Of a DNA stretch of 64,000 bases, positions 11,176 through 63,875 are shown piece after piece (the first letter of the stretch is position 1; the number at the start of each line of letters is the position of its first letter). The notes beneath the pieces are model-generated. The model saw nothing but the letters and a program-made list of their open reading frames with translations, was not told where the DNA came from and searched no databases. The position numbers and the translations under genes were made by a program. The DNA lies in the IMG/VR virus record IMGVR_UViG_2834631226_000004, positions 1 to 64,000 of that record, one strand, 5' to 3'. Origin of the DNA: a virus. Taxonomy: Duplodnaviria; Caudoviricetes.

Positions 11176-11924
11176 GCCGCATCCTCCATGCGCCAATCCA
11201 AGAAGATACCCAACTGGCGATGAAGATCGACAATATCACCAATGTTGTGAATCTCGATATCCGGGCGACCACACCCCGCCTCGCTCTCGTGGCTGCCCGC
11301 GATGCCACCACGACCGACAAGTCGCCAAACCACACCACCCAGCTTGCGCACCTCATCCGCTTCATTCGGGAAACGGCAGTCATCGACGACAACACGGCCG
11401 CCAAAGGCAAGCACGCCGTCTACGCGTGAGCGCCAGAGATTGGTCCAGAAGTCCTCTCCCATGCACTTGCGTCCCCACTCAGTGCCGAGCGTCTGCATGG
11501 CATGCCTTGGCGTGTATCCAGATAGCATTGCAAGGTCGGTCTCTTTGTGAGCGCCCTCGATGTGACCTTCGCTCAGACCGATCGCCCGCAGCATGTCTTT
11601 CAACGGGCCTGCGAACTTCACCAGTTGGTAGCCGTGCTTCTCGACCAGGTACTTGCTGGCCGTGCTCTTACCGCTGCCGGCAAGGCCGGTGAGCGCAATG
11701 ACGGGCGGCAAGATAGATGTGCTCGCCTTTCCGATTGCCGCGCCGAGTGCGCGCAGCTCGATAGGAACGTTATCATTCGCCGGTACGGCTGTGAGGCAGC
11801 CTGTGTCTTTGGATGTCAGGGTCTCGCCGAGAGTAAAAGACGCACGGAAATCCACCAAAGCTGAAGCATAGGCAGCGCGGTTCTTTTCAGCGAGTTCGTC
11901 GAGCTTGTCCAGAATGTTGGTCAT
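11172..11924 (-). CDS. Deoxynucleoside monophosphate kinase (T4 gp1-like) with N-terminal extension
   Basis: IALTGLAGSGKST P-loop, FAGPLK, TPRHAMQTLGTEWGR, VVVDDCRFPNEA..GG.VW.L, HESE. Confidence 0.85.
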   Translation of the reverse strand: MTNILDKLDELAEKNRAAYASALVDFRASFTLGETLTSKDTGCLTAVPANDNVPIELRALGAAIGKASTSILPPVIALTGLAGSGKSTASKYLVEKHGYQLVKFAGPLKDMLRAIGLSEGHIEGAHKETDLAMLSGYTPRHAMQTLGTEWGRKCMGEDFWTNLWRSRVDGVLAFGGRVVVDDCRFPNEADEVRKLGGVVWRLVGRGGIAGSHESEAGCGRPDIEIHNIGDIVDLHRQLGIFLDWRMEDAA

Positions 11925-12199
11925 AACGTTTCCTCGATCTTCTTCTCTTCCTCGACTTTCGGCTTCACCACCGGCCTGAACCGGCGCAGCGCGAACGGTG
12001 GATCCTCATCGCCGAACTGCGGACACACGCCACGGTTCACGCCCGCCAGCCTGATGCCAGCGTAGTCACCGCCGAGATACGAGCGGCACATGCCGACCCA
12101 AGTTGCTGTGTAGGTCTCCCCGGCACGAATGCCGAGGTATTGCTCTGGAAGGGTAGTGTCGTCGATGCAGATTACTTCGTCGCCGGGTTTGATGGTCAT
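11921..12199 (-). CDS. Hypothetical phage protein
   Basis: 92 aa; KPGDEVICID start; overlapping stop/start coupling. Confidence 0.6.
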   Translation of the reverse strand: MTIKPGDEVICIDDTTLPEQYLGIRAGETYTATWVGMCRSYLGGDYAGIRLAGVNRGVCPQFGDEDPPFALRRFRPVVKPKVEEEKKIEETL

Positions 12200-12438
12200 G
12201 GTGCCAACGCTCCGATGATTTTGATTGCCTCACGTAGGTCAGCGGCATACTGCCGATCGCGCTTAGCCCCGTTGTGGTGGTCGAGGAACATGCGAACCGC
12301 GAAGGTGTTGTGGTTGCCCTGCCCGGCGTTGAATAGGTCCATCTGCGGCTTCAAGGCGTCGGCCACAGCATCGTTGTTTGCGGCACATGCCTCGTCCTCG
12401 GCGAGTCGTTTTCTTAGCCGCTCGATAAGGTCGGTCAC
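12196..12438 (-). CDS. Hypothetical phage protein
   Basis: MTDLIERLR start typical of phage ORFs; coupled to neighbours. Confidence 0.6.
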   Translation of the reverse strand: MTDLIERLRKRLAEDEACAANNDAVADALKPQMDLFNAGQGNHNTFAVRMFLDHHNGAKRDRQYAADLREAIKIIGALAP

Positions 12439-13163
12439 GCAGCCCTCCCCGCCATAAGCGCATCAAACGTCGCCAGGAATTCCAACTCCGCTTCCTCCGG
12501 TGACCAGTACCGCATCTTCACGCCCAGCTCTTTGCCGGCGTACCGCGCATGCCACGGCATTTCACGCAGGTTGACCAGCTCGTCCGCAATGATTCGGTTG
12601 TCAGCGTCATGCACTTCGCGCGGCAGCTCCCGGTCCAACTGAAATCGCGCCGCGATAGCCAGCCAGTTGTCCTGCTCAATCGCCCGGTAGTTGATAAGGT
12701 ACGGCTTGAGCGGTCGCGGAATGTCCACGCAGTATGCTTCAGGGGCATCGTGGAGAAGGCCAGCCAAAGCCACCTCCGGCGCGTGCTTGGCTGCAAGATG
12801 ACGGGCAATCAGGACAGAATGTTCGGCGACGCTGTAGAACTTGATGCAGTGACCAGCGTATCGGCATTGCAGGCCGAGCGAATGCGCGATGTCTTCGATG
12901 TGGACTTCGTGCGGTCTCGGAGACATCGGCCAGTATTTGCGGCCGGTGAACGTTTGCATGAAATCGCCGGTGCGGGGTGGCTCGGCTGGTGTGTTGCGGG
13001 TTAGGCCGATGTATTGTCCGTTGTCCTGGGACTGAGGACGGTTGTCGTTGGCGGCAACTGGGGTACACCTTGTGCGCTCTTCGCGCAGCGCCACTGCAGC
13101 CTTAAAGGTGGCGATCTTTTTATCTGCGATCTCTCTAGCGTCTATCACTGCAGCGTATGGCAT
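12435..13163 (-). CDS. HD-domain 5'-deoxynucleotidase-like protein (YfbR family)
   Basis: IEDIAHSL..CRYAGH..FYSVAEHS..LLHDAPEAY..DIPRPLK..D. Confidence 0.85.
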   Translation of the reverse strand: MPYAAVIDAREIADKKIATFKAAVALREERTRCTPVAANDNRPQSQDNGQYIGLTRNTPAEPPRTGDFMQTFTGRKYWPMSPRPHEVHIEDIAHSLGLQCRYAGHCIKFYSVAEHSVLIARHLAAKHAPEVALAGLLHDAPEAYCVDIPRPLKPYLINYRAIEQDNWLAIAARFQLDRELPREVHDADNRIIADELVNLREMPWHARYAGKELGVKMRYWSPEEAELEFLATFDALMAGRAA

Positions 13164-13591
13164 CAAAACGCCTTCCCACCAGCCATAAGCCGGTTTTCGA
13201 TTTTGTGGTCAGGGCGGTTGGCGTTGAATGCCATCTTCTCGACGACGGCGCCGCCGAGGTCATAGCCGAGGAATGCCGCCAGATCGCCGATCCGGATCAT
13301 GGCGTCGGCCAGCTCCACCTCAGCCATAGGTCGGTGCGGCAGCTTGTCGTCCATCAGCACTTTACCGGGCCTGGACTTGCGATAGCCCTCCATCGCTTCG
13401 CTGATCTCGCTGTGAATCAGGCAAAGCATCTCAGGCACGTTGCGGTCCAGCGCCCTGCCTGTGGCGAGGTCAGTGTACCAGCCTGCTCTACGGCTTGCTG
13501 CGTGGCAGTCGGCTGCAAACAGGTTGATCGCTGCGGCGTGGTGGAATTCCACCTCCGCAGCGATTTTTAAAGTCACGACGTTGTCACTCAT
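13163..13591 (-). CDS. MazG-like NTP pyrophosphohydrolase
   Basis: LCLIHSEISEAMEGYRK..EVELADAMIRIGDLA..KMAFNANR. Confidence 0.8.
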   Translation of the reverse strand: MSDNVVTLKIAAEVEFHHAAAINLFAADCHAASRRAGWYTDLATGRALDRNVPEMLCLIHSEISEAMEGYRKSRPGKVLMDDKLPHRPMAEVELADAMIRIGDLAAFLGYDLGGAVVEKMAFNANRPDHKIENRLMAGGKAF

Positions 13592-13952: not shown

Positions 13953-15188
13953 TCACGCCACTGCCCTCGCCGACTCATTATCATTGGCGGCATCCATCAT
14001 CGCAACGCGAACGCGCGAAACTTCGCCATATTCCTTGTGGTAGCTGATCGACTGCATAGACCGGCCAGACAGGAAGCCCGAGCCAAAGTGCCACGCATCC
14101 TGCGGCGTCGGCGTCTGGTGAGATTCCGAAATCACCCCGCCGCCCTCAGAAGCGAACTTGCTCGAGTGGTGGATGTGAAAGCCATGGACGAAGCGGTGGC
14201 GAGTTGCGCCCCAGTCTTCGGCACGGCGGTGTGCCATGATGCTCGCCATGTCCTTGAGCTTGACCGTGTGGCCATGCGTGGCGCCGATCATCACCTTGCC
14301 GAAACGGAACCAGAAGAACAGCGACGGGTCTACGTCGACAGTCACTCTCGGCTCATTGCGATACCAGGCGAGCAGGAAGTATGCGACTGCAACAGACGCG
14401 TGCTCATCGTGATTGCCTGGCAAGATGCGGACGGTGACGTGCCCATGCCGCTTAAGGCTGGCGTCGATCGATCGAACGACAAGCCGGCATGCGGTCATCA
14501 GCACCTTTTGATACCTGCCGTCGACCTGCAGAACGTTGCCCGAGCGTGCAGTCTTGTTCTCGTTGTTGTCAGAGTGGAGCAAGTCACCGCCACCCAAGAC
14601 AATCGCATTGGCGGATGGCGGAGTGCGCGCAATCAGGTCTTCAATTGCTGAGCCAATGACATGCTCCGCAATCTTTAAATCCCAATTCGTGTCTGTCTCG
14701 CGATGCCATGAGAAGAGTCCGATATGCCAGTCGGCCAATGGCGTCAGCGTCAGCAGATCGTCATAGACGTGCGTCGGCGCGGCGATAGGTTCGGCGGGCT
14801 GAACATCACGGAATGCCTCTTTGAGGACGGCGGCGATATCGACTGGTGAGTGTTCCACCGCCGTCTTCTGCCACTGCTGGATAACGCGTCCCTCAGCATC
14901 GACGAGCGCGGACACACCTTTGACGACGTGACCGGTCGGGACTTCGAAACGCTCGCCGCGCTCCTGCGTCTGCTGGATATATGTGCCGCTCGGCGTGTTG
15001 CTGATACGGCTTATGCGAAAGCCAGGAAGGACAGGCTCTGTGCCCAGAAGGCCAGCTTCGGCAGCGCGTTTGATGCTCTCGGCAAGAGCGGACTTGCCGA
15101 TGCCAAGCGCGGCGGCAGCCTTCACGAGCGTGCCGTGCTCTCTGTAGGCGTCGGCTCTTCGACGTAGTTCTTCTATGGGTAGAGGCAT
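13953..15188 (-). CDS. N-terminal HTH plus calcineurin-like metallophosphoesterase
   Basis: PLADWHIG, GGGDLLH, ILPGNHD, ATHGH, HGFHIHH motifs. Confidence 0.8.
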   Translation of the reverse strand: MPLPIEELRRRADAYREHGTLVKAAAALGIGKSALAESIKRAAEAGLLGTEPVLPGFRISRISNTPSGTYIQQTQERGERFEVPTGHVVKGVSALVDAEGRVIQQWQKTAVEHSPVDIAAVLKEAFRDVQPAEPIAAPTHVYDDLLTLTPLADWHIGLFSWHRETDTNWDLKIAEHVIGSAIEDLIARTPPSANAIVLGGGDLLHSDNNENKTARSGNVLQVDGRYQKVLMTACRLVVRSIDASLKRHGHVTVRILPGNHDEHASVAVAYFLLAWYRNEPRVTVDVDPSLFFWFRFGKVMIGATHGHTVKLKDMASIMAHRRAEDWGATRHRFVHGFHIHHSSKFASEGGGVISESHQTPTPQDAWHFGSGFLSGRSMQSISYHKEYGEVSRVRVAMMDAANDNESARAVA

Positions 15189-16964: not shown

Positions 16965-17171
16965 GTGCGCCCAGAAAGGCGAGAGCCGGAAGCCGACCCG
17001 GTTGACCACATCATTGCCTGGCACGACGGCGACAGCCGTGCCGCGATAGAGACCCTGATGGAGGACATCCAGCATTTGCGGATGCAGCTTGCGCTGGCGA
17101 CCGCCGCGATGGGCAGAGGTTTTACGAGAGGCTGGCTACCGAATGAAGACCGGGATGACAGCAAACGATAA
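16965..17171 (+). CDS. Conserved small rhizobial protein
   Basis: DPVDHIIAWHDGDSRAAIETL..MGRGFTRG pattern typical of Rhizobiales SOS-linked loci. Confidence 0.7.
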   Translation: MRPERREPEADPVDHIIAWHDGDSRAAIETLMEDIQHLRMQLALATAAMGRGFTRGWLPNEDRDDSKR

Positions 17172-17637
17172 CGCATACGATTACAAGGAACTTGATCGGA
17201 AGAGAATATGGGTCATCTGCGAGGACTGTGAACTTCTTCGATCATTTGATGGCAACGCAGTAAAAACGGAATTTGCAGCGACACCGGCCCCAAGCCCTCT
17301 CCGTATGATCGCACAGAAGCTTATAGGCTGCCCGAAATCGAAGGAGGACTTCGGGCCGCGATGCAGGATGAGCTACTATTGGACCTCCGAGGAACGATCA
17401 GCGAAGGCGGTGCAGGAAGAAGAGTCTGCCGGTGTGCGAGTGTTCGATCTTCGCTCTTGGGAGGTTGTTGTGGCAGGTTGTGGATCGTGCAAGCATGTTA
17501 CGGAGTTACCACGGTGGAAGCTCTTAAAGATGGTCGAGGGTAACACGCCCCTAAAGGAATTACAGCCCCGTCTGAAGTGCCGGAAGTGCGGCGAGAAGGG
17601 CGGCTCCTACATCACAATTGCAAAATTGCCGAGGTGA
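17155..17637 (+). CDS. Double Zn-ribbon protein
   Basis: CEDC..GC..C and CGSC..CRKCG; begins MTANDN. Confidence 0.7.
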   Translation: MTANDNAYDYKELDRKRIWVICEDCELLRSFDGNAVKTEFAATPAPSPLRMIAQKLIGCPKSKEDFGPRCRMSYYWTSEERSAKAVQEEESAGVRVFDLRSWEVVVAGCGSCKHVTELPRWKLLKMVEGNTPLKELQPRLKCRKCGEKGGSYITIAKLPR

Positions 17638-19444: not shown

Positions 19445-19613
19445 TTTCGACATCCCCGGCCTTCTTGATGGCCTTGGCATTCGCCGCGGCCTGTTCGTCT
19501 TTTGCCGCGGAGCGTCCTGCCCTCTGGCCATACAAAAAGACGCCCGCGAGGATCGCGAGCGCCGTACCGATTGCGGCTAGATAGCCTTTGAGTTTTGCCC
19601 ACAAGAGGATCAA
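19374..19613 (-). CDS. Putative i-spanin (Rz-like)
   Basis: N-terminal TM plus periplasmic helix, between the endolysin and the lipoprotein. Confidence 0.6.
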   Translation of the reverse strand: MILLWAKLKGYLAAIGTALAILAGVFLYGQRAGRSAAKDEQAAANAKAIKKAGDVENEIRNLDDAGVDDALGKWMRDKR

Positions 19614-20536
19614 ACCACCACCTCCTTCCCGCGCCAGCTATTCCACCGGCGAGCGATGACATCTCGATTGCGATAGGCGACATAGGCCACGACCGCCACG
19701 GCAACACCGGCGACGATCCAGCCCCAAGGAAGGCCAGCCACAAAAGCGAGCAAGCCTGAGCTTGCAGCTGAGCCGACACCCTTCGTGACGGCTTCCCTTG
19801 CCGCAGATGCGTCGCGCCGAAGCTGTGCAAGCGTGGCCGGACCGATGATACCATCAGCTATCAAATGTGGATGCGCCTTCTGATAAGCGATCACCGCGGC
19901 CTTTGTCTTCTCGCCCATCCAGCCATCGATGGCGCCGGGATTGAGGCCAGCCGCCGTCAGCAGCTCCTGCGCTTCCTTCACAACCGGATCAGGCTGGGCG
20001 GGCGGCTCGGCGGTAGCCTCCTTAGTCGCGCTCGCTTCGCCGGTGTAGATGCCCTTCTCAAATAGCAGGGCCTCCTCCTTGCGTCGGCGCACGAGGCCCG
20101 GCAGCTTCTTGCCTTTCGCGGTGTTGTAGTTGGCGGCAAGATGAGCGGCGGCCTTCCCGATCTGGCCTCTGCGCCAGTAGTCGGCCCACGTCCAGTTCAT
20201 GGCGCCGACGCCGAGATTGAAGGTGACAGAAGTGGCCGCGTCGAGCTCGTGCTGCTTGCGGTCGACGGGAGAACCGGCAACGACAGCGGGCACGTATTCG
20301 GCGGCAAGCACGGCATCGAGTATCGCGTCGCTCTGTGCGGCCGTGATCTTAGTCTTGCCTGGCACGAGCTTCGTGATGCCAATCTTGGCCAGCTCGCGCC
20401 GCACGGAATCGCTGCGCATCGTGAAACCGGTCCCGATAGTCGGCACCCCGACAGGATCGAGATAGGCGGTGAGCGGATTGCCCTCATGCAGGCGCACGAA
20501 AGCCCTCCCCTGTGTGGAGATTTTGGTGATTGGCAT
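19610..20536 (-). CDS. Endolysin: GH24 lysozyme, peptidoglycan-binding domain and C-terminal TM
   Basis: HEG..AYLDPVGVPTIGTGFT, LPGLVRRRKEE, DGWMG.KT..AV.AYQ..L.ADGIIGPAT. Confidence 0.9.
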   Translation of the reverse strand: MPITKISTQGRAFVRLHEGNPLTAYLDPVGVPTIGTGFTMRSDSVRRELAKIGITKLVPGKTKITAAQSDAILDAVLAAEYVPAVVAGSPVDRKQHELDAATSVTFNLGVGAMNWTWADYWRRGQIGKAAAHLAANYNTAKGKKLPGLVRRRKEEALLFEKGIYTGEASATKEATAEPPAQPDPVVKEAQELLTAAGLNPGAIDGWMGEKTKAAVIAYQKAHPHLIADGIIGPATLAQLRRDASAAREAVTKGVGSAASSGLLAFVAGLPWGWIVAGVAVAVVAYVAYRNRDVIARRWNSWRGKEVVV

Positions 20537-20620
20537 TTGGTTTCCTTTTGAGGGGTAGGGCTGGGAACGTTCGGTCTGTCGGCGCGTTTAGACGGCGCCA
20601 TGTCCCCAATTCCATGGCCT

Positions 20621-20660
20621 AAAGACCCGCGCACGCATCCCCCCGCTGCGCGGGTCTTTT
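20621..20660. terminator. Intrinsic terminator-like hairpin
   Basis: AAAGACCCGCGCA...TGCGCGGGTCTTTT. Confidence 0.65.
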
Positions 20661-20897
20661 GCTACTATTGATACAGCCGAAACTTGCAGATATGGAGAAG
20701 CGCCGCGCTCATAACAGGCCGAGGCACGGAGGCTTGGCGCTTGGCGGAGCGTCGGGCCTCTTTTGTTTTGCTTTCGGATCGCGCCCGAGGAAAGCGTGCT
20801 CGATCACAAAAATTGATCAACGCTAAGTCGTGCGCAAACTTCGGGGGTTAATTAGAAGATTCTGACTTGCGCCGGTCTGCAGGCTGAGCAATAACCC

Positions 20898-21953
20898 TTG
20901 ACAACAGTAAATCAACCGGGCGTTGATGCGACCGGCGCATGTGTTGGGGGAGGAGCCATGCCAAGCTTGAAACAATTGAAACGCGCGATCCGAAATATGT
21001 CTACGATCGACGTGGACAGTATTTCCAAAATCAGCGGAATGTCGACTTCAGTGCGCTCAATCGAACACGGGCAAGTCGCGCTGAACGACGGCATGACGAC
21101 TCTAATTGATAACGTCACCAACTTGGCCGACGTTTTGAAAGCGCCAAAGTCATCCGTACTGGATGGTCATGTTGTGTTCGACTACACCTACAAACCCGAA
21201 CGCCGTGAGCTGCATAAAGGCAGTGCCGGCAAGAAGCTAATAGATATTCTTGATCAGGGTCGTAGCTTGTATCAGTCTCACTTGGCTGGAATAAATGACC
21301 TCTCAGAATGGCTAAAGAAGATCCCGACCCATGGGTCGCCAGAGGATATCACACCATATTGGACAAACGGCTGGTTTGAAGGGCTGGATGGCGCGTCCCT
21401 CTATTACCTGATCGCTAAAAATAATCCGTCGATCTACATGGAAGTCGGATCAGGCAATTCTACTAAATTTGTCCGCAAGGCCATAGAAGATCACGGGCTG
21501 AGGACAAAGATCGTCTCGATAGACCCTCAACCTCGCGCAGATATCGACAAGCTATGCGACCAAGTTATTCGTCAGAAATGCGAGGACGTTGATCCTTCGA
21601 TTTTTACCAGATTAGGGCCTGATGATATCCTTTTCATAGACAACAGCCATCGGAGCTTTCAGGGGTCCGATGTGACTGTATTCTTTGCAGAAATACTTCC
21701 AGCGCTGCCGCGAGGAATATTGTTCGGAATTCATGATATATTCATTCCGTACGATTATCCGCCCAGCTGGTCTGATCGCTTTTATAACGAGCAGTATCTG
21801 CTGCTGGCGTATATCCACGGCGGCATGGGCGGCGGGTCAATCGAGCTCCCTGTCTGCCATCTAAGCATTTCAGGCGAAGCAGCAGAAATTCTCACTGATT
21901 CACTTGTGTCTCATACGGGTATCGATGGCGGGGCATTCTGGATGCGCCGCTAA
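20898..21953 (+). CDS. Class I SAM-dependent methyltransferase (Methyltransf_24-like) moron; true start may be downstream
   Basis: YMEVGSGNST, SIDPQP, DILFIDNSH, HDIFIPYDYP..W..YNEQYLL; opposite strand and lower GC than the tail genes. Confidence 0.8.
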   Translation: MTTVNQPGVDATGACVGGGAMPSLKQLKRAIRNMSTIDVDSISKISGMSTSVRSIEHGQVALNDGMTTLIDNVTNLADVLKAPKSSVLDGHVVFDYTYKPERRELHKGSAGKKLIDILDQGRSLYQSHLAGINDLSEWLKKIPTHGSPEDITPYWTNGWFEGLDGASLYYLIAKNNPSIYMEVGSGNSTKFVRKAIEDHGLRTKIVSIDPQPRADIDKLCDQVIRQKCEDVDPSIFTRLGPDDILFIDNSHRSFQGSDVTVFFAEILPALPRGILFGIHDIFIPYDYPPSWSDRFYNEQYLLLAYIHGGMGGGSIELPVCHLSISGEAAEILTDSLVSHTGIDGGAFWMRR

Positions 21954-22098
21954 TCGGGTTGTGAGATCAAGGAAACCAGCGATCTTTACCGCCCTCCTTT
22001 TTTGGATCTTGGCGCGGCGCGAACACCGCGCCGCTTCCTCAGGCGATTGCTGCCACCATACCAAATAGCGCTACCGGTCAATCAAAAAGCAGCTTAAT

Positions 22099-24012
22099 TC
22101 AAACATACTGCCCGCCTGTTGCAGCAGTTCCCGCAACAGTGCCAGGGAAGTAATTCGCCCCGGCACCTTCGACAATTACGCATCCGTTTCTGTGAACGAG
22201 ATACGTTGCTCCTGCAACATTTGCCTTGTTTGTAAACGTACATCCGGTGGAAGTCAGGAGGCCTGTCGCCACCCCGCACCATCTCGTAACGCCAATTGGC
22301 GCAGAAATAGTGATCGTTACATTTTGGCAGATGACCTGACCAAACCCGTAGGCGTGCCAGTGGTTTACGCAGCCGCCGGCAACCGTATAATTTGCGGTTA
22401 TAGAAATCGTGCCACCATTGATGGCGATAAAATGATCACCACCAAGAGCACCAGCAAAGAGACAATTTGCGCCAAGCTGAATATCCCCGCCGTTTGCAAA
22501 CAAGCAACTCCCAACGTTAAGCGCCGAAAATCTAACTCCGCCCACGTTCACGGTGAAGCCGGGACAAGAATTTACGATGCAATTGTTGTTCGTCACTTCA
22601 AGGAAACAGTTCGCTGGATTAGCCACATTTCCGCGTATAAAGACACGGTTGTTTCCAAGCAGTCTTTTAGCGACTGTTAATGACGCCGAGTGGTAACCAT
22701 CCGCCATGTTGATAGTTACATCAAAACCGTTCAGGTCGAGCTTGTTTGCAATAAAATCATACGCGTATTGCAGCGTGGCCCAAGCGCCAGCATCAGTGTT
22801 TTCAGTGCCTGCATTTGCATTATTGCCCCCTGTTCGGACATAGTAGTTCCGGTTTTCAGTCAGTATGTCGCGGATGCCGATGGCGGCTCGAACTTGAGCC
22901 ACCGTCAACCGCTCAACCGGGCCTACCCCGGCGGAAACTCGACCAACAAGAGCGGGCGAGCCCATTTGTGCCGTACCGATTTCTTTACCGGTATCGCCAG
23001 AAAACTGAACGAAATCGCCAGCGATGGCATTTTCTGGGCCGACCACATCACCTACACCAGTTCCATCCGTCCCCTTGCGGGCCAGCAGCCGCCAATAGGC
23101 ATTACTCTCGGTCGGCAGGGTCGGAGGCGCATTGCCCGTGGCCGGCTGAAGTGCGATCCACGTCGACCCGTTATTGAGAACAATGTCGTTCGTCTCATAG
23201 GCCGTAGCGCCGCTATATGTGCCGCGGTCAACCACGCCAGCCGTGCCAGAGCGCGCGAACAGTAGCCACTGCGTGTTCTCGGTCGTCGGAAGCGTCGGCG
23301 GCGCATTACCGGTTGTGGCTACCTTGGCGATCCACGTAGAGCCGCCGTACTGCACGATATCGCGGATCGCATAGGCCGTGCCTGCGCTGTAGTTGCCTCT
23401 CTGGTTGACACCAGCAGGGCCGACAGGACCGGTCACATATGACGGCGCGCTCCAGTCGCCCGACGTTGCCGAGTTCTTGAAATAGAGCGCAGACCGGCCA
23501 TCTCCAATGTCGATGACAAGGACAGAAAAACCAGCAGCGGCGCCATTATAAGCCGCCCTTCCCGCAAGGTTCGCCACCCATGCATCATACTGCACACCCT
23601 GAACAAGAGCCGCCTTGTTGATCGTGCTGAAGACGCCCGGGCCGATACCAATCGGAATATCGTCAGTGCCGACCGAGATTTCAGACAGGCTGTCGAGGTT
23701 GCCATTCGACAACGAAGCCAGCAGCCGGCGCATAGCCTCGACTGCCGCAATCGTTGGCGAGGTCAGCTCGACCTTGTAGGGCGCATCTGTCTGCGCAGGA
23801 CCGGGCCAATCATCGGCAAGCAGCAGTTCCGTATCGCTGATGATCTGATCGATGACGATCGGACGGCCAACATGAATTCCGAACTTGTCACCGGCCTTGA
23901 TCGGGGTCAGGCCAGCAACTTCCGTCAGCCAGCCGGTGTCCGTGCCGGTGACAGTGCGAGAGCCGACAGCGACGGTTGCCGTGCCGTCGCCGTACCAGGT
24001 GGTGTTAGCCAT
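22099..24012 (-). CDS. Tail fibre / receptor-binding protein
   Basis: Conserved N-terminal attachment region, two tandem RG.YS..TAY..DIV..GSTWIA..W.LLAR.G repeats, beta-rich C-terminus. Confidence 0.8.
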   Translation of the reverse strand: MANTTWYGDGTATVAVGSRTVTGTDTGWLTEVAGLTPIKAGDKFGIHVGRPIVIDQIISDTELLLADDWPGPAQTDAPYKVELTSPTIAAVEAMRRLLASLSNGNLDSLSEISVGTDDIPIGIGPGVFSTINKAALVQGVQYDAWVANLAGRAAYNGAAAGFSVLVIDIGDGRSALYFKNSATSGDWSAPSYVTGPVGPAGVNQRGNYSAGTAYAIRDIVQYGGSTWIAKVATTGNAPPTLPTTENTQWLLFARSGTAGVVDRGTYSGATAYETNDIVLNNGSTWIALQPATGNAPPTLPTESNAYWRLLARKGTDGTGVGDVVGPENAIAGDFVQFSGDTGKEIGTAQMGSPALVGRVSAGVGPVERLTVAQVRAAIGIRDILTENRNYYVRTGGNNANAGTENTDAGAWATLQYAYDFIANKLDLNGFDVTINMADGYHSASLTVAKRLLGNNRVFIRGNVANPANCFLEVTNNNCIVNSCPGFTVNVGGVRFSALNVGSCLFANGGDIQLGANCLFAGALGGDHFIAINGGTISITANYTVAGGCVNHWHAYGFGQVICQNVTITISAPIGVTRWCGVATGLLTSTGCTFTNKANVAGATYLVHRNGCVIVEGAGANYFPGTVAGTAATGGQYV

Positions 24013-24239
24013 TATTCGGATGCTCCGTTACCGTTATCGACTGGATCGCCCGCGCCTTTTGCAAGGCGCAGATCGGCTTCAAGGCCGTTGATCTTGTCGA
24101 GGAGGGTTTTGTTTTCCTGCTTCTGCATCACGAGATGCTGACCGAGCAGCAAGGTCCGCTGCTTCAGAAATTCTTCGCGCACTTCTGCTTCCTGCAAGGC
24201 GACGAGAGCGTCGACCTGCATCTGATTGCCGGAGGCCAT
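24012..24239 (-). CDS. Small coiled-coil tail-associated protein
   Basis: 75 aa, between the tail tip and fibre genes. Confidence 0.65.
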   Translation of the reverse strand: MASGNQMQVDALVALQEAEVREEFLKQRTLLLGQHLVMQKQENKTLLDKINGLEADLRLAKGAGDPVDNGNGASE

Positions 24240-24242
24240 GGA

Positions 24243-27122: not shown

Positions 27123-27180
27123 CGATTTTCCTTGGGATGCGCGTTGCGCGCGGGGCGCGGATGGCGCCGAAGGAATGCCG

Positions 27181-27609
27181 CTAGAGCGGCTTCATGAAAT
27201 GAGTTTCGACAGCGCTGTAGCCGCGCCGCTCGTAAAGGCTGGAGACGTCATTAGTTGCCAGCGAAGCCATTCCGGCCGAGACGCATCCGACCGACCGCGC
27301 CCACGTCTCATATGCGTCTAGCATCTGAATCGCGCCCCGACCGCGTGCCGCTGGCGTGACGTACCAGACCGTCTCCTTGGCAATTCGACCAGCGCCAAAG
27401 GGATGTTCAAAGGCACAGGCCATCAGGACGCCTTGTGCGGGCTTGCCTGCGACGAGAACGCAGGCCTTGTCCGACGCCAGATGCTGCTGAAACAGCCGAT
27501 CGGCGTAGGCTGCCTGAAATGGGAACGTAAACCCGGCGGCTTCATGGCTCTCACGCAGGAGCGCCACAACGCGGTCGCGGTCCTCAGCGGTAGCGAAGCG
27601 GACGTCCAT
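27181..27609 (-). CDS. GNAT-family N-acetyltransferase within the tail operon
   Basis: VRFATAED, VWYVTPAARGRGA..ML.A.E.WA..GC, LYERRGY. Confidence 0.8.
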   Translation of the reverse strand: MDVRFATAEDRDRVVALLRESHEAAGFTFPFQAAYADRLFQQHLASDKACVLVAGKPAQGVLMACAFEHPFGAGRIAKETVWYVTPAARGRGAIQMLDAYETWARSVGCVSAGMASLATNDVSSLYERRGYSAVETHFMKPL

Positions 27610-28274: not shown

Positions 28275-28282
28275 GATACCCC

Positions 28283-28927: not shown

Positions 28928-29014
28928 TGTGTCTCCGCCGTTGGGTGGCCGCAAAGGAACAAAGCTCGCAACCGCGCATTTCCCCCGGCGCAATCAACAA
29001 CCGGAGGAAATCCC

Positions 29015-29509: not shown

Positions 29510-29520
29510 AGCAGGTTGCC

Positions 29521-29546
29521 AAGGCCTCCCCAATCGGGAGGCCTTT
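29521..29546. terminator. Intrinsic terminator-like hairpin
   Basis: AAGGCCTCCC-CAATC-GGGAGGCCTTT. Confidence 0.7.
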
Positions 29547-32963: not shown

Positions 32964-32964
32964 A

Positions 32965-52756: not shown

Positions 52757-53571
52757 GCTGCCCTCCCGAACAAGTCTGCCTGAACCGGCGACACATTGTC
52801 ATTGTCGGCCTCAACGACGTGCACCTCTTCCAGCCGTTCAAACTCGATGCAAACGATCTCGCACATGGGCGAAACACCCTTCCAATCATTGATATAGAAA
52901 GACGTGTCGATCCCGCAGCCGGCCTCGAAGTGAAGGCCGGTGAGCTCCTGGAATTTTACCGCTTTGCCGTCCTTTTGGCGCTCGTAGCAAGGCCGTCCGC
53001 TGTAGTTGAAGCCCGCTGACATCTGCGGGACGATGAATGCACCAGTGTCGGCCAGATGAGCGGCGATATCGATGACGTGGAATTCGAACTCTGCGCCGGT
53101 GTAGCGAGGAGCGCCGCCGTTGCGCTTGATCTTGCCGAAAGGCGGGTTGCTGATCGCAACGTCAAACCTGCCCAGCCCCATTTCCAGCACGTCCATCACG
53201 TCGGCGAGAATCCATTCCGCCTCCGGCAAAATCGTCTGACCGACGGCGAGATAATCCGGATTGCGCTCCACGCAGGTGATGCGGGCCTTTTGGTGGCTAC
53301 GGTGCCAGCAAGCGTACGACAGCATTCCAATGCCAGCGCACAGATCGATGATCCGCCCGCCGTATCCGCCTTGCCCGATGGCGTCGATCGTGAAATCAAA
53401 CGCCATATCGTACGGTGTGAAAAAAGCGCCAGTAGCGCCGTTGACGTGGGTCGCGCCCTCGTTCCAGTTTTTGAGGACGAAGTCCTTGTCGTCTTCAGTT
53501 AGAGCCGGCTTCGTCAGCAGGTCGCAGGCCTGCGTATGGGCCTTTGCTTGAGCTTTCGTGAGCTTGGCCAT
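52753..53571 (-). CDS. Putative amino (N6/N4) DNA methyltransferase, gamma-like motif order
   Basis: GAFFTP, IIDLCAGIG (SAM motif), ISNPPF (catalytic motif). Confidence 0.8.
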   Translation of the reverse strand: MAKLTKAQAKAHTQACDLLTKPALTEDDKDFVLKNWNEGATHVNGATGAFFTPYDMAFDFTIDAIGQGGYGGRIIDLCAGIGMLSYACWHRSHQKARITCVERNPDYLAVGQTILPEAEWILADVMDVLEMGLGRFDVAISNPPFGKIKRNGGAPRYTGAEFEFHVIDIAAHLADTGAFIVPQMSAGFNYSGRPCYERQKDGKAVKFQELTGLHFEAGCGIDTSFYINDWKGVSPMCEIVCIEFERLEEVHVVEADNDNVSPVQADLFGRAA

Positions 53572-54875
53572 TACGCTGCCTCCGAAAACAAATCAGCAGG
53601 ACGATTGTCATTTGCCGGTACTGCCGCTGGATCGTCATCCTTGCTATTCGCGCCGATAGCCCACGCAATCCGGGCCGTAGCGATGGGCATGTATTCGTCC
53701 TCGCGCTCGCAGCCGATAAACTGAAAGCCCTCGAGAACAGCCGCCTTACCCGTGCTCCCAGAGCCCATGAATGGATCTAGGATGATTCCTCCGGGTGGCG
53801 TGATGAGGCGGCAAAGCCACTGCATAAGGGTCGTCGGCTTGACGGTTGGATGGGTGTTGGCACGAGGTTCAGGCTTGTAGCCCTCGTCGCGTCGTGTCAT
53901 GTGCTGCCCGCTCGTATTAGAGACCATGCCGCCGGCTTTCTTCGGCAGGTGGTCTAGTCCTGCATCACGGTCGGCACGGCTGGCCTTGGCACAATAGAAG
54001 AAGCGTGCTGCGGACTTGTCGAGTTCAATGCGTGGGGCAAAGTGATCGCGAGTACCGAAACCGCCATAAATGCCTCGGCTCTCCTTCTCTCCATGCTCCG
54101 GCCCAACCGCTCTCTGCTGCCCGGGAGCATCAGGAAATGCCGCCAGCACCTCGTCGCTGCCGTCGTGGAGAATATTGGCTGGCCAGCGACCAGTTGGCTG
54201 TTGAAAGTCACCCGCCGCCCCGTTTTCGAAACCAGATCCGTCTTTCCAAGCAGACGATTCCGCTCTGCCGCTAGACTGCGCTGCATAAGCGCCACCGCCT
54301 AGTTTTTCATCGGTTTCAACCCGGCAGCCATCCACATTGATCGCGCCCACGCCCCACTCAGCAAGGTTAGCAGCGACGGTGCCAGTCAAAGGTTTGCGCG
54401 CCAGAGCAATAGGCTCCCATGCTGGCTTGAGCGCGGTACCCCAACCCTCCCAATCGCCATGCTGGTTGTGCGACTTCGGGAAGCCAGAACCATACACCCA
54501 GCCCAGTTGATCACGGATCTCAAAGCCTGCATCCTCGATCGCAACAGCCATGCGATGATACGTGCGCGTGCCAGAGAACGCGACGACATGGCCGCCCGGC
54601 TTGAGAACGCGCAGGACTTCAGCCCAGAACTCCTCTGAGAATGCGACTTCGCCGGTGTCCCACTGCTTGCCCATAAATCCAGCTGCTCCGCGACCATAAA
54701 CGTCTTTGGCCGGTGCAGAACCTGGCTTTCCGAAACGCTTCTGGATCGAGACCAGCGCATAAGGCGGGTCGGTAACGACACTGTCGATCGAGTTGTCGGC
54801 GAGGCCGCGCAACACGTCGCGGCAATCTTTTTGATGCAGCACGACTCTTCCGTCGTGCATCGAGGTGATGCTCAC
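53571..54875 (-). CDS. Site-specific N6/N4 DNA methyltransferase, beta class
   Basis: VTDPPY, LKPGG, HPTVKP..L, LDPFMGSGSTG. Confidence 0.9.
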   Translation of the reverse strand: MSITSMHDGRVVLHQKDCRDVLRGLADNSIDSVVTDPPYALVSIQKRFGKPGSAPAKDVYGRGAAGFMGKQWDTGEVAFSEEFWAEVLRVLKPGGHVVAFSGTRTYHRMAVAIEDAGFEIRDQLGWVYGSGFPKSHNQHGDWEGWGTALKPAWEPIALARKPLTGTVAANLAEWGVGAINVDGCRVETDEKLGGGAYAAQSSGRAESSAWKDGSGFENGAAGDFQQPTGRWPANILHDGSDEVLAAFPDAPGQQRAVGPEHGEKESRGIYGGFGTRDHFAPRIELDKSAARFFYCAKASRADRDAGLDHLPKKAGGMVSNTSGQHMTRRDEGYKPEPRANTHPTVKPTTLMQWLCRLITPPGGIILDPFMGSGSTGKAAVLEGFQFIGCEREDEYMPIATARIAWAIGANSKDDDPAAVPANDNRPADLFSEAA

Positions 54876-55226: not shown

Positions 55227-55744
55227 GCGACGCGAACCGACAACTGCTCGCCTGCCTCACCCATCCGAGCGCCAGGAACATCGGTGCCAGCCTTTAGACG
55301 GTCGGCGATTTCCTTTTTGTCCGGCGCAGTGGTAATTTTCACAACGTCTGACGGCAACAATGCCTCGTCGACGATCTCGACCGACGCAGCCTTCCTGCCG
55401 ATGGAAATCGTCGCCTCTGCCAGAGGTACACGTGGCAGCCCTGCGGCTTTCAGCAACTTGAACATCAGGCTGCGCATCGCTTCCTTGCGCCGCTCGGCGC
55501 GAGACTTGCGCGCTTGCAGATCGGAGATGCGGAGCGCTACTGACTTTGCCAAGCTGTCGGCGTCGCGTTCGCCGTTCACAAGGCGCGTCAGGACGGCGTG
55601 GAAGTTGGTCTCGCCTTCAAGCATATCAGCGCGCAGTTCTTCGTCGGCTTCGAGCTCCGGATAAGCGGCGAGCATGTCCGAGAACAGCGCTTCGAGGTTG
55701 GCGACGTCGGCGGCCAAATAGTTGTCGTTGGCTGGTTTGGTCAT
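55223..55744 (-). CDS. Siphovirus Gp157-like protein
   Basis: D.LEGETN..I..L.ARK.R.E.R..R, PDKK.I..RLK.G..VPGA. Confidence 0.8.
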   Translation of the reverse strand: MTKPANDNYLAADVANLEALFSDMLAAYPELEADEELRADMLEGETNFHAVLTRLVNGERDADSLAKSVALRISDLQARKSRAERRKEAMRSLMFKLLKAAGLPRVPLAEATISIGRKAASVEIVDEALLPSDVVKITTAPDKKEIADRLKAGTDVPGARMGEAGEQLSVRVA

Positions 55745-57118: not shown

Positions 57119-58867
57119 TTAGAATGGTACATCGTCCGCCACTAGCGCCTGCCAATCTTCCTCATCACGGTTGTCGTTCGCCGGCGCCTGTCTGTTGTCA
57201 TTATCTGCCGGCACCCACTGCTTGACGTCCCAATACTTGCCGCGTGGGGCGATCATGACCTCGGCCGTGTCGCGCAGTTCTCGCTGCCGCTCGAGCCATT
57301 CCAGCACTGTCTTGGGAAACGGCATCTTGCCGCCATGCGATCGCCAGTAGCGGTCGGCCTTCGACTTGGGGAATCCTTGGTGCTGAGGGCAGATCCATTC
57401 AGATATTGAGGTCATCCCACACATGTACGTGACCTTCACGCTATCGGGCTTGCCTTCTTTACCGGGGTGGTGGCGGAACGTACGCGAGGTCACCGTGCGG
57501 GGTTCTGGCTCTGCCGTCGACATGATCGGTGTATCAGCAGCCGTGGCCGTAATCTTCGGACTGTCATCGATGTCGAACTCGTAGCCGCAGCATGAGCAGA
57601 CGCGCGCCGAAGCATGCACCTTTTCTCCGCAGCCGAAGCGTCCGTTCTTGTCCTCGACGTCGAACGGGCAGACCTTCACTGGTGCTTCGCCGTCGCCCTT
57701 GTTGGGCGTCTTTGGCTGCACCATGTCGACCGGCCCGTGCTTGTCGACGAGACCGGCGAAGTCCAGCACGAGGCACGACGGTTTCGGACCAGCCTTGATT
57801 GCCGCAATGCGCTCCTGAGGCGTGCCGAGAGGCATGCCAGGCGCGTATATGACGCGAGTGCCGCGGCCCATCATCTGCACGTACAGCGAAACTGACAACG
57901 TCGGGCGAAGGGCAGCAATCAGGTCGACACCCTTGTGATTGAAGCCGGTGGTCAACACCGAGTTATTCGTCAGCGCGCGGATCTTGTAGGACTTGAAGTC
58001 CTCGATAATGCGCCGGCGTTCATCCTTCGGCGTTTCGCCGCTAATCATCTCGCAGGAGATGCCGCGCGAACGGATCTCATCACGCACGTGCTCGGCGTGC
58101 TCCACACCAGAGCAGAAGCAAAGCCAGGACTTGCGGTCGGCGCCCTTTGCGACGATCTCATCGACGGCGGAGCGCGTGACGTCCATCTTGTCCACAGCAG
58201 CCTGCAACGCGGATTGCTTATAGTCGCCGCCCTGCCTTCCTACGCCCTTCATATCGAACGTCGTGGCAGTAGCCTTTGACGAAAGCGGCGCGAGATAGCC
58301 GTCAGCAACACCGTCGGCGATGCCGTAGGTATAGACGATCTGATCGAACAAACGATCGTCGCCTTCATCAAGTCGGCCTGTATCCAGCCGGTAAGGTGTC
58401 GCAGTGAGCCCCAGGATTTTCATATCCGGATTGATGGCACGCAAGGCGGCGATGAAGCGGCCGTACATCGTGTTGCTGTTGGCGGGGATCAGATGGCACT
58501 CGTCCACCATCAGCACGTCGATGTGCCCGATGAGCGCAGCTTTGCTGTGCACGGTCTGAATGCCGGCGAAGATGATCTGGCTGCGCGCGTCACGACGGCC
58601 AAGACCGGCCGAGAATATCCCCGCCGGAGCAAATGGCCAAATGCCGAGCAGCTCTAGGTAATTCTGCTCGATGAGCTCAGCGACATGGGTGGCGACAAGG
58701 ATGCGCATGTCCGGCCAGCCTTCAACCAGCCTCTTGATGAGCGAAGCCATGAGCAGCGACTTGCCGCAGCCAGTCGCGAGGTCAACGAGCGGATTGCCAG
58801 CAGTCGTTGACCAGTAGTCGAAAACAGCGTTTTCTGCGTCTTCTTGGTAGTGGCGAAGTTGGAGCAT
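57119..58867 (-). CDS. SF2 (DEAD/DEAH-like) helicase with C-terminal Zn ribbon
   Basis: LATGCGKS, VDECH, GLTATP, LTTGF, QMMGRG.R; ends DDVPF. Confidence 0.92.
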   Translation of the reverse strand: MLQLRHYQEDAENAVFDYWSTTAGNPLVDLATGCGKSLLMASLIKRLVEGWPDMRILVATHVAELIEQNYLELLGIWPFAPAGIFSAGLGRRDARSQIIFAGIQTVHSKAALIGHIDVLMVDECHLIPANSNTMYGRFIAALRAINPDMKILGLTATPYRLDTGRLDEGDDRLFDQIVYTYGIADGVADGYLAPLSSKATATTFDMKGVGRQGGDYKQSALQAAVDKMDVTRSAVDEIVAKGADRKSWLCFCSGVEHAEHVRDEIRSRGISCEMISGETPKDERRRIIEDFKSYKIRALTNNSVLTTGFNHKGVDLIAALRPTLSVSLYVQMMGRGTRVIYAPGMPLGTPQERIAAIKAGPKPSCLVLDFAGLVDKHGPVDMVQPKTPNKGDGEAPVKVCPFDVEDKNGRFGCGEKVHASARVCSCCGYEFDIDDSPKITATAADTPIMSTAEPEPRTVTSRTFRHHPGKEGKPDSVKVTYMCGMTSISEWICPQHQGFPKSKADRYWRSHGGKMPFPKTVLEWLERQRELRDTAEVMIAPRGKYWDVKQWVPADNDNRQAPANDNRDEEDWQALVADDVPF

Positions 58868-59418: not shown

Positions 59419-59951
59419 CCAGCCTCCCGCAGCAGCCCAAGCACCCTCGCCCGCTCCTTGATGACGATTTGGCGAACGCGCTCTTTGGTGAGGCCGTGGT
59501 CATTGCCGATGGCCTCCAGCGTCTCACCCATCGCCCTTCGCATCAGCATCGCGCCATTGCGTCCTTCCAGCAGCGAAACAACGCGAGACAGGTCCGTGCC
59601 ATCCTCCTGATGCGGATCAGTGGAACCCGGCAGTTCCTCAAACGCCGAGAGACTGCAGACCTCAGCGGACCGCGACTTGGTGGAGTTGGTGCGAACGAAC
59701 TCCTTCGCCGTACCCCGAACGCAGAGGACGGCCCACGTCCAGAAGGTCTCAAGGCGGCATTCGCGATGACGGCGCAACATGACGACCATCGCCGACTGAA
59801 ACAGTTCGTCGGCCGCGTCTTCGTTCTTGGTGATCTTTCGCGCCAGTCTTCGCAAAGCCGGCTCATAGGCCAGAAGCTTGCGGTCGAACGCGGGACTGCG
59901 CGGATTATTATCATTCGCAGCGACAAGCGGCGTGCGTGCTACAAGCGGCAT
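59415..59951 (-). CDS. ECF/sigma70-like transcription factor
   Basis: LRRLARKI..DAADELFQ..F.TW (region 2-like) and TLEAIG..GLTKERVRQI (region 4 HTH). Confidence 0.7.
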   Translation of the reverse strand: MPLVARTPLVAANDNNPRSPAFDRKLLAYEPALRRLARKITKNEDAADELFQSAMVVMLRRHRECRLETFWTWAVLCVRGTAKEFVRTNSTKSRSAEVCSLSAFEELPGSTDPHQEDGTDLSRVVSLLEGRNGAMLMRRAMGETLEAIGNDHGLTKERVRQIVIKERARVLGLLREAG

Positions 59952-62351: not shown

Positions 62352-62423
62352 GGGTGTCTCCTCTGATCGCGGGTTGTCCCGCGCGATGTGTGGTGGTGCC
62401 AGCCGTGGCGAGCGGCAGGCGGG

Positions 62424-63257
62424 TTAGGCTGCCCAAGGGGCCGGTTGACGCTTCGGCGGCTCGTAGCCGATTGGATAGCCGAGACCATCCTCGCCTTCAT
62501 CGTACCGGCTCTCGTCGAACTGCTCGCCCTTCAACCCAGCGATCTTCTTGAACAAACCGATCGCGCTGCCTGGCTGCTCTTCGTTGTCGTTTGCCACCCA
62601 CGATTCCTTGCCTTCATCATCGACGGTCAGGGCAGATATTGCCGCATCGAGAGAGAAAGGCGTGCCTTCCGTGCCGAGAACAACCTTCTCGCCATAAGCG
62701 CCGCCGATCTGGTCTTTCAGCTCCTCCCACGTGTCGATCTTCACCTTACGTCCTGCCAACACGATCTTGAGGATATCGCCCTTGCCGATCGTGTAGCCGC
62801 GATCCTGATACTTGAGGACGCGCGTCGCCGACGCCAGTGGGTATCGGGTGCCGGAATGGAATCGCAGGAATCGCTGTGAATTGTGCTTCAGGAAGTCGTC
62901 GTGGAATGAGAATTCGTCACTGTCGAAATCCAGCGCACCCATGACGGCCGTGAAGTCGAACGCGTCGAAGATGTCCTGCGCCGTCGGGAAGAAATCGAAG
63001 TGCATGAACTGGATCGGTGTGCCGCCGCTTTCTGCAAACGTCACGGCACGCTTTGTCGTTGAGACGCACCAGAAACCATTTTCGTAAGCGTCTGCGACTG
63101 CATATTCGAAGGCCTCGCGGCTCTTGAAGTAGACATCAACGTCGTTGATATCTCGATTGGTGAACACGCTTGTCACCGCTCCGCCGGCCGCGAATGCGCC
63201 GGGGATCGGGTAGCATTTCTCCGTGATCTTTCTGGCTTCCGCCTTGTAACTGCTCAT
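62424..63257 (-). CDS. Putative Pol-beta-superfamily nucleotidyltransferase (CCA/poly(A) polymerase head-like)
   Basis: AGGAVTS..DINDVDVYF, FDAFDFT, RV.KY..RGY. Confidence 0.6.
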   Translation of the reverse strand: MSSYKAEARKITEKCYPIPGAFAAGGAVTSVFTNRDINDVDVYFKSREAFEYAVADAYENGFWCVSTTKRAVTFAESGGTPIQFMHFDFFPTAQDIFDAFDFTAVMGALDFDSDEFSFHDDFLKHNSQRFLRFHSGTRYPLASATRVLKYQDRGYTIGKGDILKIVLAGRKVKIDTWEELKDQIGGAYGEKVVLGTEGTPFSLDAAISALTVDDEGKESWVANDNEEQPGSAIGLFKKIAGLKGEQFDESRYDEGEDGLGYPIGYEPPKRQPAPWAA

Positions 63258-63317
63258 GCAAATCTCCTCAAACGTGGTGAATTAGCGGGCCGCTGGTGAG
63301 GCAGCCCGCGTTGGTGG

Positions 63318-63875
63318 TTATTTGCTTCCCCAGGGCCGGCGCGTCGTGCCAGCAGCCACAGCGGCAGGCTTGTTGTCGTTGCTGGCGGCAGTTCGGCGGT
63401 TGTCATTGGCGGCGGATGGCTGAGGCGCAGGCTGGTTGGCGTCGATCTCTGGCGCGGGAACATTGCCTTCGTCTTCGAAGAAATAGCGTTTGATCTCGGC
63501 GCGCGCCGGGTAGCCGTTCTGCGCCTTACCAAGGCCGATCTTGGCAGTGAACGCCAGGAAGTGAAGCTCTTCGCTGTCCTCGATCGAAGACACGCCAACG
63601 GCACGGCAAAGGCTGGCGAACTGCTTCTGCCCGATCTCCTGGGCTTGCGGGTTGGAGTTCTCGAGATTGTAGGTCGTGAAGAGCTTGCGGCCCTTTAGGC
63701 TTTCAGGCTCGATGACCACCATCGTCGTCTTGAGGATGGTGCCGTTGCCTGCCTTCGTCGGGCCGACGTCGCTGGCCTCGATTTCCAGCTTGTAAATGCC
63801 GTTTGGAAGTTCGGCGTAGTCGTTCTGCTGTGTGTCGTGTGCGGTCGCATCAAATCTTTGACCAAGTCCTGCCAT
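63318..63875 (-). CDS. DUF669-family protein (putative ssDNA-binding)
   Basis: LPNG.Y..I..S....G..L....GRKLF..N..N..AQEIG..L..A.G..L...I..NEIK-like; AAGGAG RBS. Confidence 0.75.
   Translation of the reverse strand: MAGLGQRFDATAHDTQQNDYAELPNGIYKLEIEASDVGPTKAGNGTILKTTMVVIEPESLKGRKLFTTYNLENSNPQAQEIGQKQFASLCRAVGVSSIEDSEELHFLAFTAKIGLGKAQNGYPARAEIKRYFFEDEGNVPAPEIDANQPAPQPSAANDNRRTAASNDNKPAAVAAGTTRRPWGSK

Follow-up and report, generated by a model that had tools for sequence, protein, structure and literature searches.

A provirus record of 76,362 nt (IMG/VR IMGVR_UViG_2834631226_000004, CheckV completeness 100), whose first 64 kb constitute the window analysed here, encodes approximately 18 unrelated non-virion proteins, most of them with functions in DNA metabolism and regulation, that carry the tetrapeptide ANDN or a variant of it. 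ANDN is most likely a short linear motif selected at the protein level, which copies the head of the host transfer-messenger RNA (tmRNA, ssrA) tag, that is, the part bound by the adaptor SspB. With reasonable probability, the copies act as genome-encoded SspB-docking motifs forming ssrA-like degrons for the protease ClpXP.

Six-frame translation of the window gave exactly 16 ANDN, all in frame, in open reading frames (ORFs) of at least 70 aa and distributed over 15 genes. The original prediction, made by reading the sequence of the window, had named these 16 sites (by the lower coordinate for copies on the minus strand), all in frame on the coding strand of 15 genes, as well as three ADNDN (44514, 52795, and 57194) and one SNDN (63372); all of them were recovered and no further ANDN was found. 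The full record contains 19 ANDN, with three beyond the window at 66854 (-), 66962 (-), and 73362 (+). The amino acid composition predicts 0.18 copies for the full record, which rules out chance or composition as the cause of the 19 observed, and the rough estimate of ~0.1 made earlier by hand was close to this value. Shuffling the residues within each protein produced a mean of 0.185 ANDN, with a maximum of three in 2000 trials. ANDN is the most overrepresented tetrapeptide of the proteome (Poisson P 3e-24). Among the 23 in-frame xNDN tetrapeptides listed, NDN is preceded by Ala in 17, by Asp in three (the ADNDN copies), by Ser in two, and by Glu in one.

The excess is limited to the coding frame. 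Of the DNA 9-mers able to encode NDN, 25 out of 29 lie in the frame of a called gene and four do not, and the base composition predicts 2.4 for any frame. The wobble bases differ among the copies at all four positions and the flanking DNA sequences are without similarity. At orthologous sites of the related prophages the residues are kept, and both codons and neighbours change. Since the out-of-frame copies occur only at chance level and the wobble bases vary, selection is indicated to act on the peptide and not on the DNA, as had been proposed earlier from the varied synonymous codons. Equal enrichment out of frame, named in the original prediction as the outcome that would count against it, was not observed, and neither was an enrichment independent of frame with conserved nucleotides, as expected for a DNA-level repeat or binding site. 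A DNA-level motif, which this frame-limited excess contradicts, was rejected. The recent capture of an ssrA gene was also rejected, as the tag is matched only by the head and the end of the tails, whose codons vary.

The motif corresponds to the start of the tag in the likely hosts. The tmRNA tag identified by ARAGORN reads ANDNNAKEYALAA in each of three Agrobacterium genomes, and that of Rhizobium esperanzae reads ANDNYAEARLAA; all four genomes contain a related prophage. These tags start with ANDN and end with AA, and the residues following ANDN are nine in Agrobacterium and eight in R. esperanzae. The statement that alphaproteobacterial tags begin with (A)ANDN and end with AA was thus confirmed for these four genomes. 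The head becomes AANDN once the Ala donated by the tmRNA is counted, and Ala precedes the motif in 45 of the 98 phage copies scored (record and 13 related loci). The consensus of these copies is [A 46% / P 35%]-ANDN-x-[P 43%], and the ANDN in it equals the start of the host tag. The phage motifs are encoded in frame within the genes, an indication that they are mimics of the tag and not products of its co-translational addition by tmRNA.

The putative reader of the motif is also present in the hosts. Each of the same four Rhizobiaceae genomes has one sspB gene, adjoining ssrA. The SspB of Agrobacterium pusense matches PDB 2NYS (E 9e-105), which is the solved structure of the Agrobacterium SspB, and the Caulobacter SspB-alpha entries 2QAS and 2QAZ. 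No SspB homologue encoded by the phage was found in the record. The SspB of Escherichia coli binds the initial seven residues of the tag and its tail tethers the substrate to ClpX (PMC9963277). In Caulobacter, the genetic fusion of an alpha-type tag leads to rapid proteolysis, and the deletion of sspB slows the degradation (PMC9393093). With regard to synteny, sspB is located approximately 100-260 nt from the permuted tmRNA gene, or overlaps it, on the same strand (L022-L029; G001-G004).

As a second, independent signal, the C-termini of about half of the carriers show the other element of the tag, the Ala-Ala known as C-motif 1 of ClpX or a Val-Ala. In the record, 9 of the 20 NDN proteins end in Ala-Ala compared with 4 of the 95 other called ORFs (Fisher P 1.1e-5), and two further NDN proteins end in Val-Ala. 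Genes were called by a greedy choice of ORFs followed by six manual corrections; C-termini are independent of the choice of start codon, and a few spurious ORFs enlarge the class of proteins without NDN. In the 13 related prophage loci, the Ala-Ala end was found in 36 of 69 NDN proteins and in 36 of 295 others (P 6.5e-12, a value which overstates the significance as neither loci nor orthologues are independent). Almost half of the copies in the record and the related loci (49/102) are located 3-20 residues from the C-terminus, with 10, 8, and 9 residues as the commonest distances. The spacing of the C-terminal class is therefore that of the native tag, a comparison which does not apply to N-terminal and linker copies. 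In the window, spacings of 7, 9, and 10 residues in the exonuclease, the C5 methyltransferase, and the N6/N4 methyltransferase, respectively, result in complete tag-like tails. The class I methyltransferase has a similar tail with ADNDN as its head. In the deoxynucleoside monophosphate (dNMP) kinase, the dNMP phosphatase, and the primase-helicase, the motif lies in an N-terminal extension or linker and is paired with an Ala-Ala end far away in the sequence; the remaining carriers have the head only.

Pfam and PHROG searches placed the copies outside the domains, in C-terminal tails, N-terminal extensions, and one linker, in agreement with the earlier description of their position as mostly linkers or termini. 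In detail, C-terminal tail copies, all on the minus strand, are found in an exonuclease, three methyltransferases, an HNH nuclease, an SF2 helicase, and a DUF669 protein. The DNA-repair exonuclease (13953-15188) has ANDN at aa 401 (13977..13988), after the end of its PHROG domain at aa 397 and seven residues before its Val-Ala end. The C5 DNA methyltransferase (50618-52336) carries ANDN at aa 560 (50648..50659), nine residues before an Ala-Ala end, and this head-to-end spacing is the one of the Agrobacterium tag. In the N6/N4 methyltransferase of the CcrM-family Pfam (53571-54875), ANDN at aa 421 (53604..53615) is placed 10 residues ahead of an Ala-Ala end, with PADLF in between. The tail of the class I methyltransferase (52753-53571) contains the variant ADNDN (52795..52809), then QADLF and an Ala-Ala end, with the head 13 residues ahead of this end. 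The copy of the HNH endonuclease (45300-45728) is at aa 131 (45327..45338), eight residues from the end.

The other two tails of this class carry two motifs each. The SF2 helicase (57119-58927), which ends in DDVPF, has ADNDN and ANDN in its tail at a distance of eight residues (57170..57208), and the DUF669 protein of single-stranded DNA (ssDNA)-binding type (63318-63974) has ANDN at aa 189 and SNDN at aa 198 (63372..63410). Such tandem NDN motifs, 8-9 residues apart, recur in the helicase and DUF669 tails of the related loci L003, L006, L007, and L008. With such a pair, the two sites of an SspB dimer might be occupied together, or the avidity might be increased.

The N-terminal extensions with a copy belong to the dNMP kinase, the dNMP phosphatase, the sigma factor, and the Gam-like protein, again on the minus strand. 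In the kinase (11172-11924) ANDN is at aa 49 (11769..11780), ahead of a kinase domain that begins at ~aa 73, and in the phosphatase (12435-13166) it is at aa 39 (13041..13052); both proteins end in Ala-Ala. The sigma-70-family factor (59415-60023) has the motif at aa 36 (59907..59918). The Gam-like Sipho_Gp157 protein (55223-55804) has it near the N-terminus (55721..55732), as residue 5 when counted from the ATG at 55744, and ends in Val-Ala.

The single linker copy is located in the primase-helicase (48436-50679, minus strand), where ANDN at aa 361 (49588..49599) separates the Prim-Pol domain (23-195) from the AAA_25 helicase domain (370-562); this protein ends in Ala-Ala. N362, D363, N364, and P366 are invariant in 13 orthologues of 42-97% identity, and their surroundings are rich in indels. 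In the AlphaFold2 prediction, residues 305-397 have a pLDDT <50 and the linker with the motif is without secondary structure at a pLDDT of 23-44; this model, based on a shallow alignment and with a mean pLDDT of 58, is only supportive. A conserved island within a variable, unstructured segment, recurring in unrelated proteins, is the pattern of a short linear motif, with the disorder of the linker taken from this low-quality model.

Copies are also found in proteins characterized only by a PHROG match or less. The ORF at 43552-44499 (phrog_36072, minus strand) has two, at aa 51 (44338..44349) and at aa 302 (43585..43596), the latter 10 residues from the C-terminus. The adjacent ORF at 44499-45005 (phrog_824, minus strand) has ADNDN (44514..44528) four residues from the end. 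In the ORF at 62424-63257 (phrog_18122, minus strand), ANDN at aa 222 (62583..62594) follows a domain ending at ~aa 212-218 and the protein ends in Ala-Ala. The ORF at 17089-17637 (plus strand), for which no Pfam or PHROG family match was found, carries ANDN near its N-terminus (17161..17172), as residue 3 if the start is the ATG at 17155. The only copy of the first 10.5 kb, that is, outside the main phage, is at aa 41 (409..420, plus strand) in the capsid protein (289-1386) of a satellite-like element, and its function is the least certain among the copies.

The tails are modular. The QADLF and PADLF of two of the methyltransferases, located between the NDN head and the Ala-Ala end, are of the beta-clamp-binding type, and the phage encodes its own beta clamp (61296-62351, minus strand). 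ANDN itself does not match the beta-clamp-binding consensus (Q-x-x-L-F type). The clamp was rejected as the receptor of the motif on account of this mismatch and of the phages that share the module and have no ANDN. The DDVPF end of the SF2 helicase resembles the acidic C-terminal tip of the bacterial ssDNA-binding protein SSB, and its orthologues (L001-L012) end in IPF, VPF, or IQF. This tail may be an SSB-tail mimic that docks on the partners of SSB.

The lysis, tail, head, and packaging module (19610..42770, minus strand) forms the contrast class, with neither ANDN nor an in-frame NDN. Its PHROGs are endolysin, tail fibres, tape measure, capsid, protease, and portal, and the earlier claim that no copy lies in this region was borne out. 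Under uniform placement, the absence of all 19 copies from these 23 kb has a P of 9e-4.

Beyond this record, the motif follows a phage lineage. Phages 16-3, NV1.1.1, RHph_TM3_3_14B, and RHph_X2_25 have 18-20 pattern matches each versus 0-1 in the control. On the contrary, 11 other phages have 0-1 copies, namely Sinorhizobium PBC5, RcapMu, Komagataeibacter phiKX1, Brucella Bk2, Sulfitobacter M39, Burkholderia phi1026b, and five gamma- and betaproteobacterial phages sharing the helicase. In these five, neither ANDN nor the host-matched variants AND[D/E]N were found. Based on the near absence in PBC5, RcapMu, phiKX1, Bk2, and M39, the trait belongs to the 16-3-type lineage and not to every phage whose host has an ANDN tag. 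The original prediction had suggested a comparison of alphaproteobacterial phages with others; the enrichment is found in 16-3-type phages and is not general among alphaproteobacterial phages. In 16-3 itself, 14 copies were placed in 13 called ORFs against 0.12 expected.

Among the 13 related prophage loci, 11 have 4-12 copies each and two have 1-2, and only two of all these copies are not on the gene strand. At more distant loci, the pattern was absent or gave one stray match. The A. pusense genome (5.3 Mb) contains 43 matches to the degenerate DNA pattern and 10 to its reversed control. Twenty of the 43 are within a 54-kb related prophage and one is the tmRNA gene, which indicates that the motif is rare in host proteins. 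In 60 further alphaproteobacterial genomes that were sampled, the background was noisy (~2-3 matches per Mb) with occasional outliers; the sample includes one unpublished genome (G044), on which no conclusion is based. One of the outliers (G010) had 44 ANDN-coding pattern matches versus one in the control, and it probably carries one or more motif-rich prophages.

Taken together, the identity with the host tag, the ClpX-type end, the spacing, the position in flexible segments, the rarity in the host, and the absence from the virion module argue for ssrA-tag mimics that would be read by SspB and ClpXP; at the level of the sequence, all features expected of such a mimic were found, the Ala-Ala or Val-Ala end in about half of the carriers. 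The docking on SspB, the degradation by ClpXP, and the biological purpose are what we infer from them. In this mechanism, the substrate-binding domain of the host SspB would dock on the exposed motif and its C-terminal tail would tether the phage protein to ClpX. In about half of the carriers, the motif and the Ala-Ala or Val-Ala end would constitute a genome-encoded bipartite ssrA-like degron. Some of these would be complete tag-like tails with the native spacing of 7-10 residues, and others would be split between an N-terminal extension or linker and a distant C-terminus. ClpXP would then degrade the protein. The predicted outcome is that early proteins and those for replication, nucleotide metabolism, methylation, and transcription are unstable by design. 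They would be removed once lysis or lysogeny has been decided, or when expression in the lysogen is leaky, with the virion proteins of this phage left untagged. Nucleases, helicases, orphan methyltransferases (one of them of the CcrM Pfam family), and the sigma factor would thus be kept short-lived. Copies without the Ala-Ala end would still occupy SspB.

Several observations weigh against the degron interpretation. Neither Ala-Ala nor Val-Ala is present at the end of about half of the carriers, and SspB docking alone would not degrade them. In a third of the copies, the residue ahead of the motif is Pro where the native tag has Ala, and the Pro two residues after it is not a feature of native tags. 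PBC5, which shares its host Sinorhizobium meliloti with 16-3, and the other four alphaproteobacterial phages compared have 0-1 copies. In 16-3 the link with the Ala-Ala end is weak (4/13 vs 8/82, P 0.057), and two of its copies are in the structural part of the genome, one in the probable portal ORF that follows terL (2202-3392) and has a complete tag-like tail at its end, and the other in a long ORF of the structural region. The sparing of virion genes is accordingly true of the window phage and does not hold for this relative. The interpretation as a tag mimic, put forward in the original prediction, keeps the support of the host-tag identity, the Ala-Ala link, the native spacing, the flexible placement, and the empty virion module of the window phage, and loses its generality for alphaproteobacterial phages. 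As for the portal protein of the window (38945-40174, minus strand), it has an Ala-Ala end without an ANDN head, whereas the 16-3 ORF has both.

An alternative, which we regard as unlikely, is that the motifs mainly act as a decoy in lytic growth, titrating SspB and perhaps ClpX, with the degradation of the phage proteins as a side effect; tmRNA-tagged or other ClpXP substrates would be stabilised, or the host cell cycle perturbed. Such a sink would fit with the approximately 18 different carriers, several with two copies eight residues apart, with the half of them that lack a ClpX-type end, and with a target that is a single-copy gene of the host. Neither the association with Ala-Ala nor the native spacing of 8-10 residues would be needed for this purpose, however, and one abundant protein would suffice in place of a motif on many enzymes. 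As head-only copies would occupy SspB in either case, the degron role and the competitive or decoy role are inseparable in the sequence. Slightly less probable still is a docking motif for another partner, either a hub of the 16-3-lineage phages or a component of the host replisome or nucleotide metabolism, which would assemble the enzymes of DNA metabolism, with the likeness to ssrA being coincidental. The trait is linked to a lineage, with PBC5 on the same host lacking it, most carriers act on DNA or nucleotides, and the same tails hold the clamp-type QADLF/PADLF and the SSB-tail-type DDVPF. On the other hand, it is an unlikely coincidence that the motif equals the first four to five tag residues and goes together with an enrichment of Ala-Ala ends at tag-like spacing, and a sigma factor, an HNH nuclease, and proteins of unassigned function are among the carriers. 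Moreover, no copy is found in three gammaproteobacterial phages with the helicase-exonuclease(-clamp) module, which shows that this module does not require the motif, nor in the Ralstonia and E. coli phages that share the helicase.

A nucleic-acid element that translates as ANDN by chance, for instance a sequence that marks a boundary for recombination at gene ends or a binding site for protein or RNA, is highly improbable. Many copies are indeed near gene ends and nearly all are on the gene strand, but the variable wobble positions and unrelated flanks, the confinement of the NDN 9-mers to the coding frame apart from a chance remainder, and the conservation of residues instead of codons or neighbours at orthologous sites are all opposed to it. 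Returning to the SspB-ClpXP interpretation, its wider form stands at about an even balance: the temperate rhizobiophage lineage that includes 16-3 would use SspB as a proteome-wide hub, with a fifth to a third of the proteins carrying the tag head for ClpXP turnover, and at high expression the saturation of SspB/ClpXP would rewire host proteolysis and the cell cycle.

Compared with the native alphaproteobacterial tag (Caulobacter tag AANDNFAEEFAVAA; SspB-alpha 2QAS/2QAZ), the phage tails share the (A)ANDN head and, in the C-terminal class, the distance of 8-9 residues to the end, with the Ala-Ala end itself present in 9 of the 20 NDN proteins, and the same host reader, SspB, is available to them. 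They differ in that the native tag is added by trans-translation and the phage signal is encoded in the genes, the middle of the phage tail is unrelated, many copies are internal or N-terminal and far from the C-terminus, and Pro often flanks them. A genome-encoded ClpXP substrate is known in E. coli, that is, RseA(1-108), which ends in VAA and is bound by SspB at a separate site (Flynn et al. 2004, listed in PMC8138137). Similarly to the phage proteins, it combines a naturally encoded SspB docking site with an Ala-Ala-type end, the two being not necessarily adjacent. Its SspB site, however, is unlike the ssrA head, and RseA is one host protein, in contrast to a single tag-identical motif spread over ~18 unrelated phage proteins.

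In phage lambda, CII, N, and Xis are degraded by FtsH/Lon. Lambda O and MuA are substrates of ClpXP (PMC8138137). These proteins, too, have early or regulatory roles in temperate phages and owe their instability to host proteases, as proposed here, but each has its own degron, without an adaptor-binding motif shared across the proteome as seen here. Mimicry of short linear motifs, acquired convergently in disordered regions of unrelated proteins to reach a host hub, is familiar from eukaryotic viruses; the mimicry proposed here differs in its bacterial host, in a protease adaptor as the hub, and in its unusual extent, a fifth of the proteome. In Alphaproteobacteria, Lon proteolysis limits the cell-cycle DNA methyltransferase CcrM. 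The likeness to the phage enzymes, one of which belongs to the same Pfam family (N6_N4_Mtase), would lie in a methyltransferase activity limited in time by proteolysis, and the difference is the protease, Lon versus the putative ClpXP/SspB tail.

No published description of the motif or of tag mimicry by phages was found in the full-text literature within reach, which leaves out most subscription journals, and the AP-16-3/16-3 genome paper does not mention the motif. The SspB of PMC9345386 is an unrelated phosphorothioate-defence protein. If the wider, lineage-level interpretation is true, a bacterial virus would for the first time be seen to mimic degrons on the scale of its proteome. Binding by SspB would provide a simple, general mechanism for timing and for the safety of the lysogen through short-lived nucleases, helicases, orphan methyltransferases, and sigma factor. 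It would further mean that phages, like eukaryotic viruses, evolve host-mimicking short linear motifs proteome-wide, and that the machinery recognizing tmRNA tags has natural encoded clients well beyond quality control. The copies would also provide a natural set of SspB-alpha ligands defining the specificity of the adaptor, as well as tunable degrons ready for use in Agrobacterium and rhizobia. A tractable pair for this idea exists in S. meliloti and phage 16-3, with the adaptor structure (2NYS) solved.

Regarding the identity of the provirus, similarity was found between its head genes and the ones of Sinorhizobium phage NV1.1.1, and its large terminase is similar to that of RHph_X2_25, AP-16-3, and Rhizobium phage 16-3. 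The primase-helicase is 94-97% identical to prophage genes of Agrobacterium burrii and A. pusense and 62-87% identical to those of other Rhizobiaceae, and the host is therefore assigned to Agrobacterium or the Rhizobium group. The element is classified as a temperate phage of the 16-3 group. Besides the lysis, tail, head, and packaging module at 19.6-42.8 kb, the remaining genes concern immunity, nucleotide metabolism, replication, methylation, and regulation.

The satellite-like block (1-10523), which has a second capsid gene of the HK97 type (289-1386), adjoins a tRNA-Ser (10524-10614, minus strand). A tRNA-Met (43250-43326, minus strand) shows 82% likeness to the tRNA-Met of the Komagataeibacter phages phiKX1 and phiKX2. 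Outside the window, the record encodes a pentapeptide-repeat protein (72383-73126, plus strand) with 13 LYGA units, which account for the overrepresentation of the tetrapeptides NLYG, LYGA, and ANLY.

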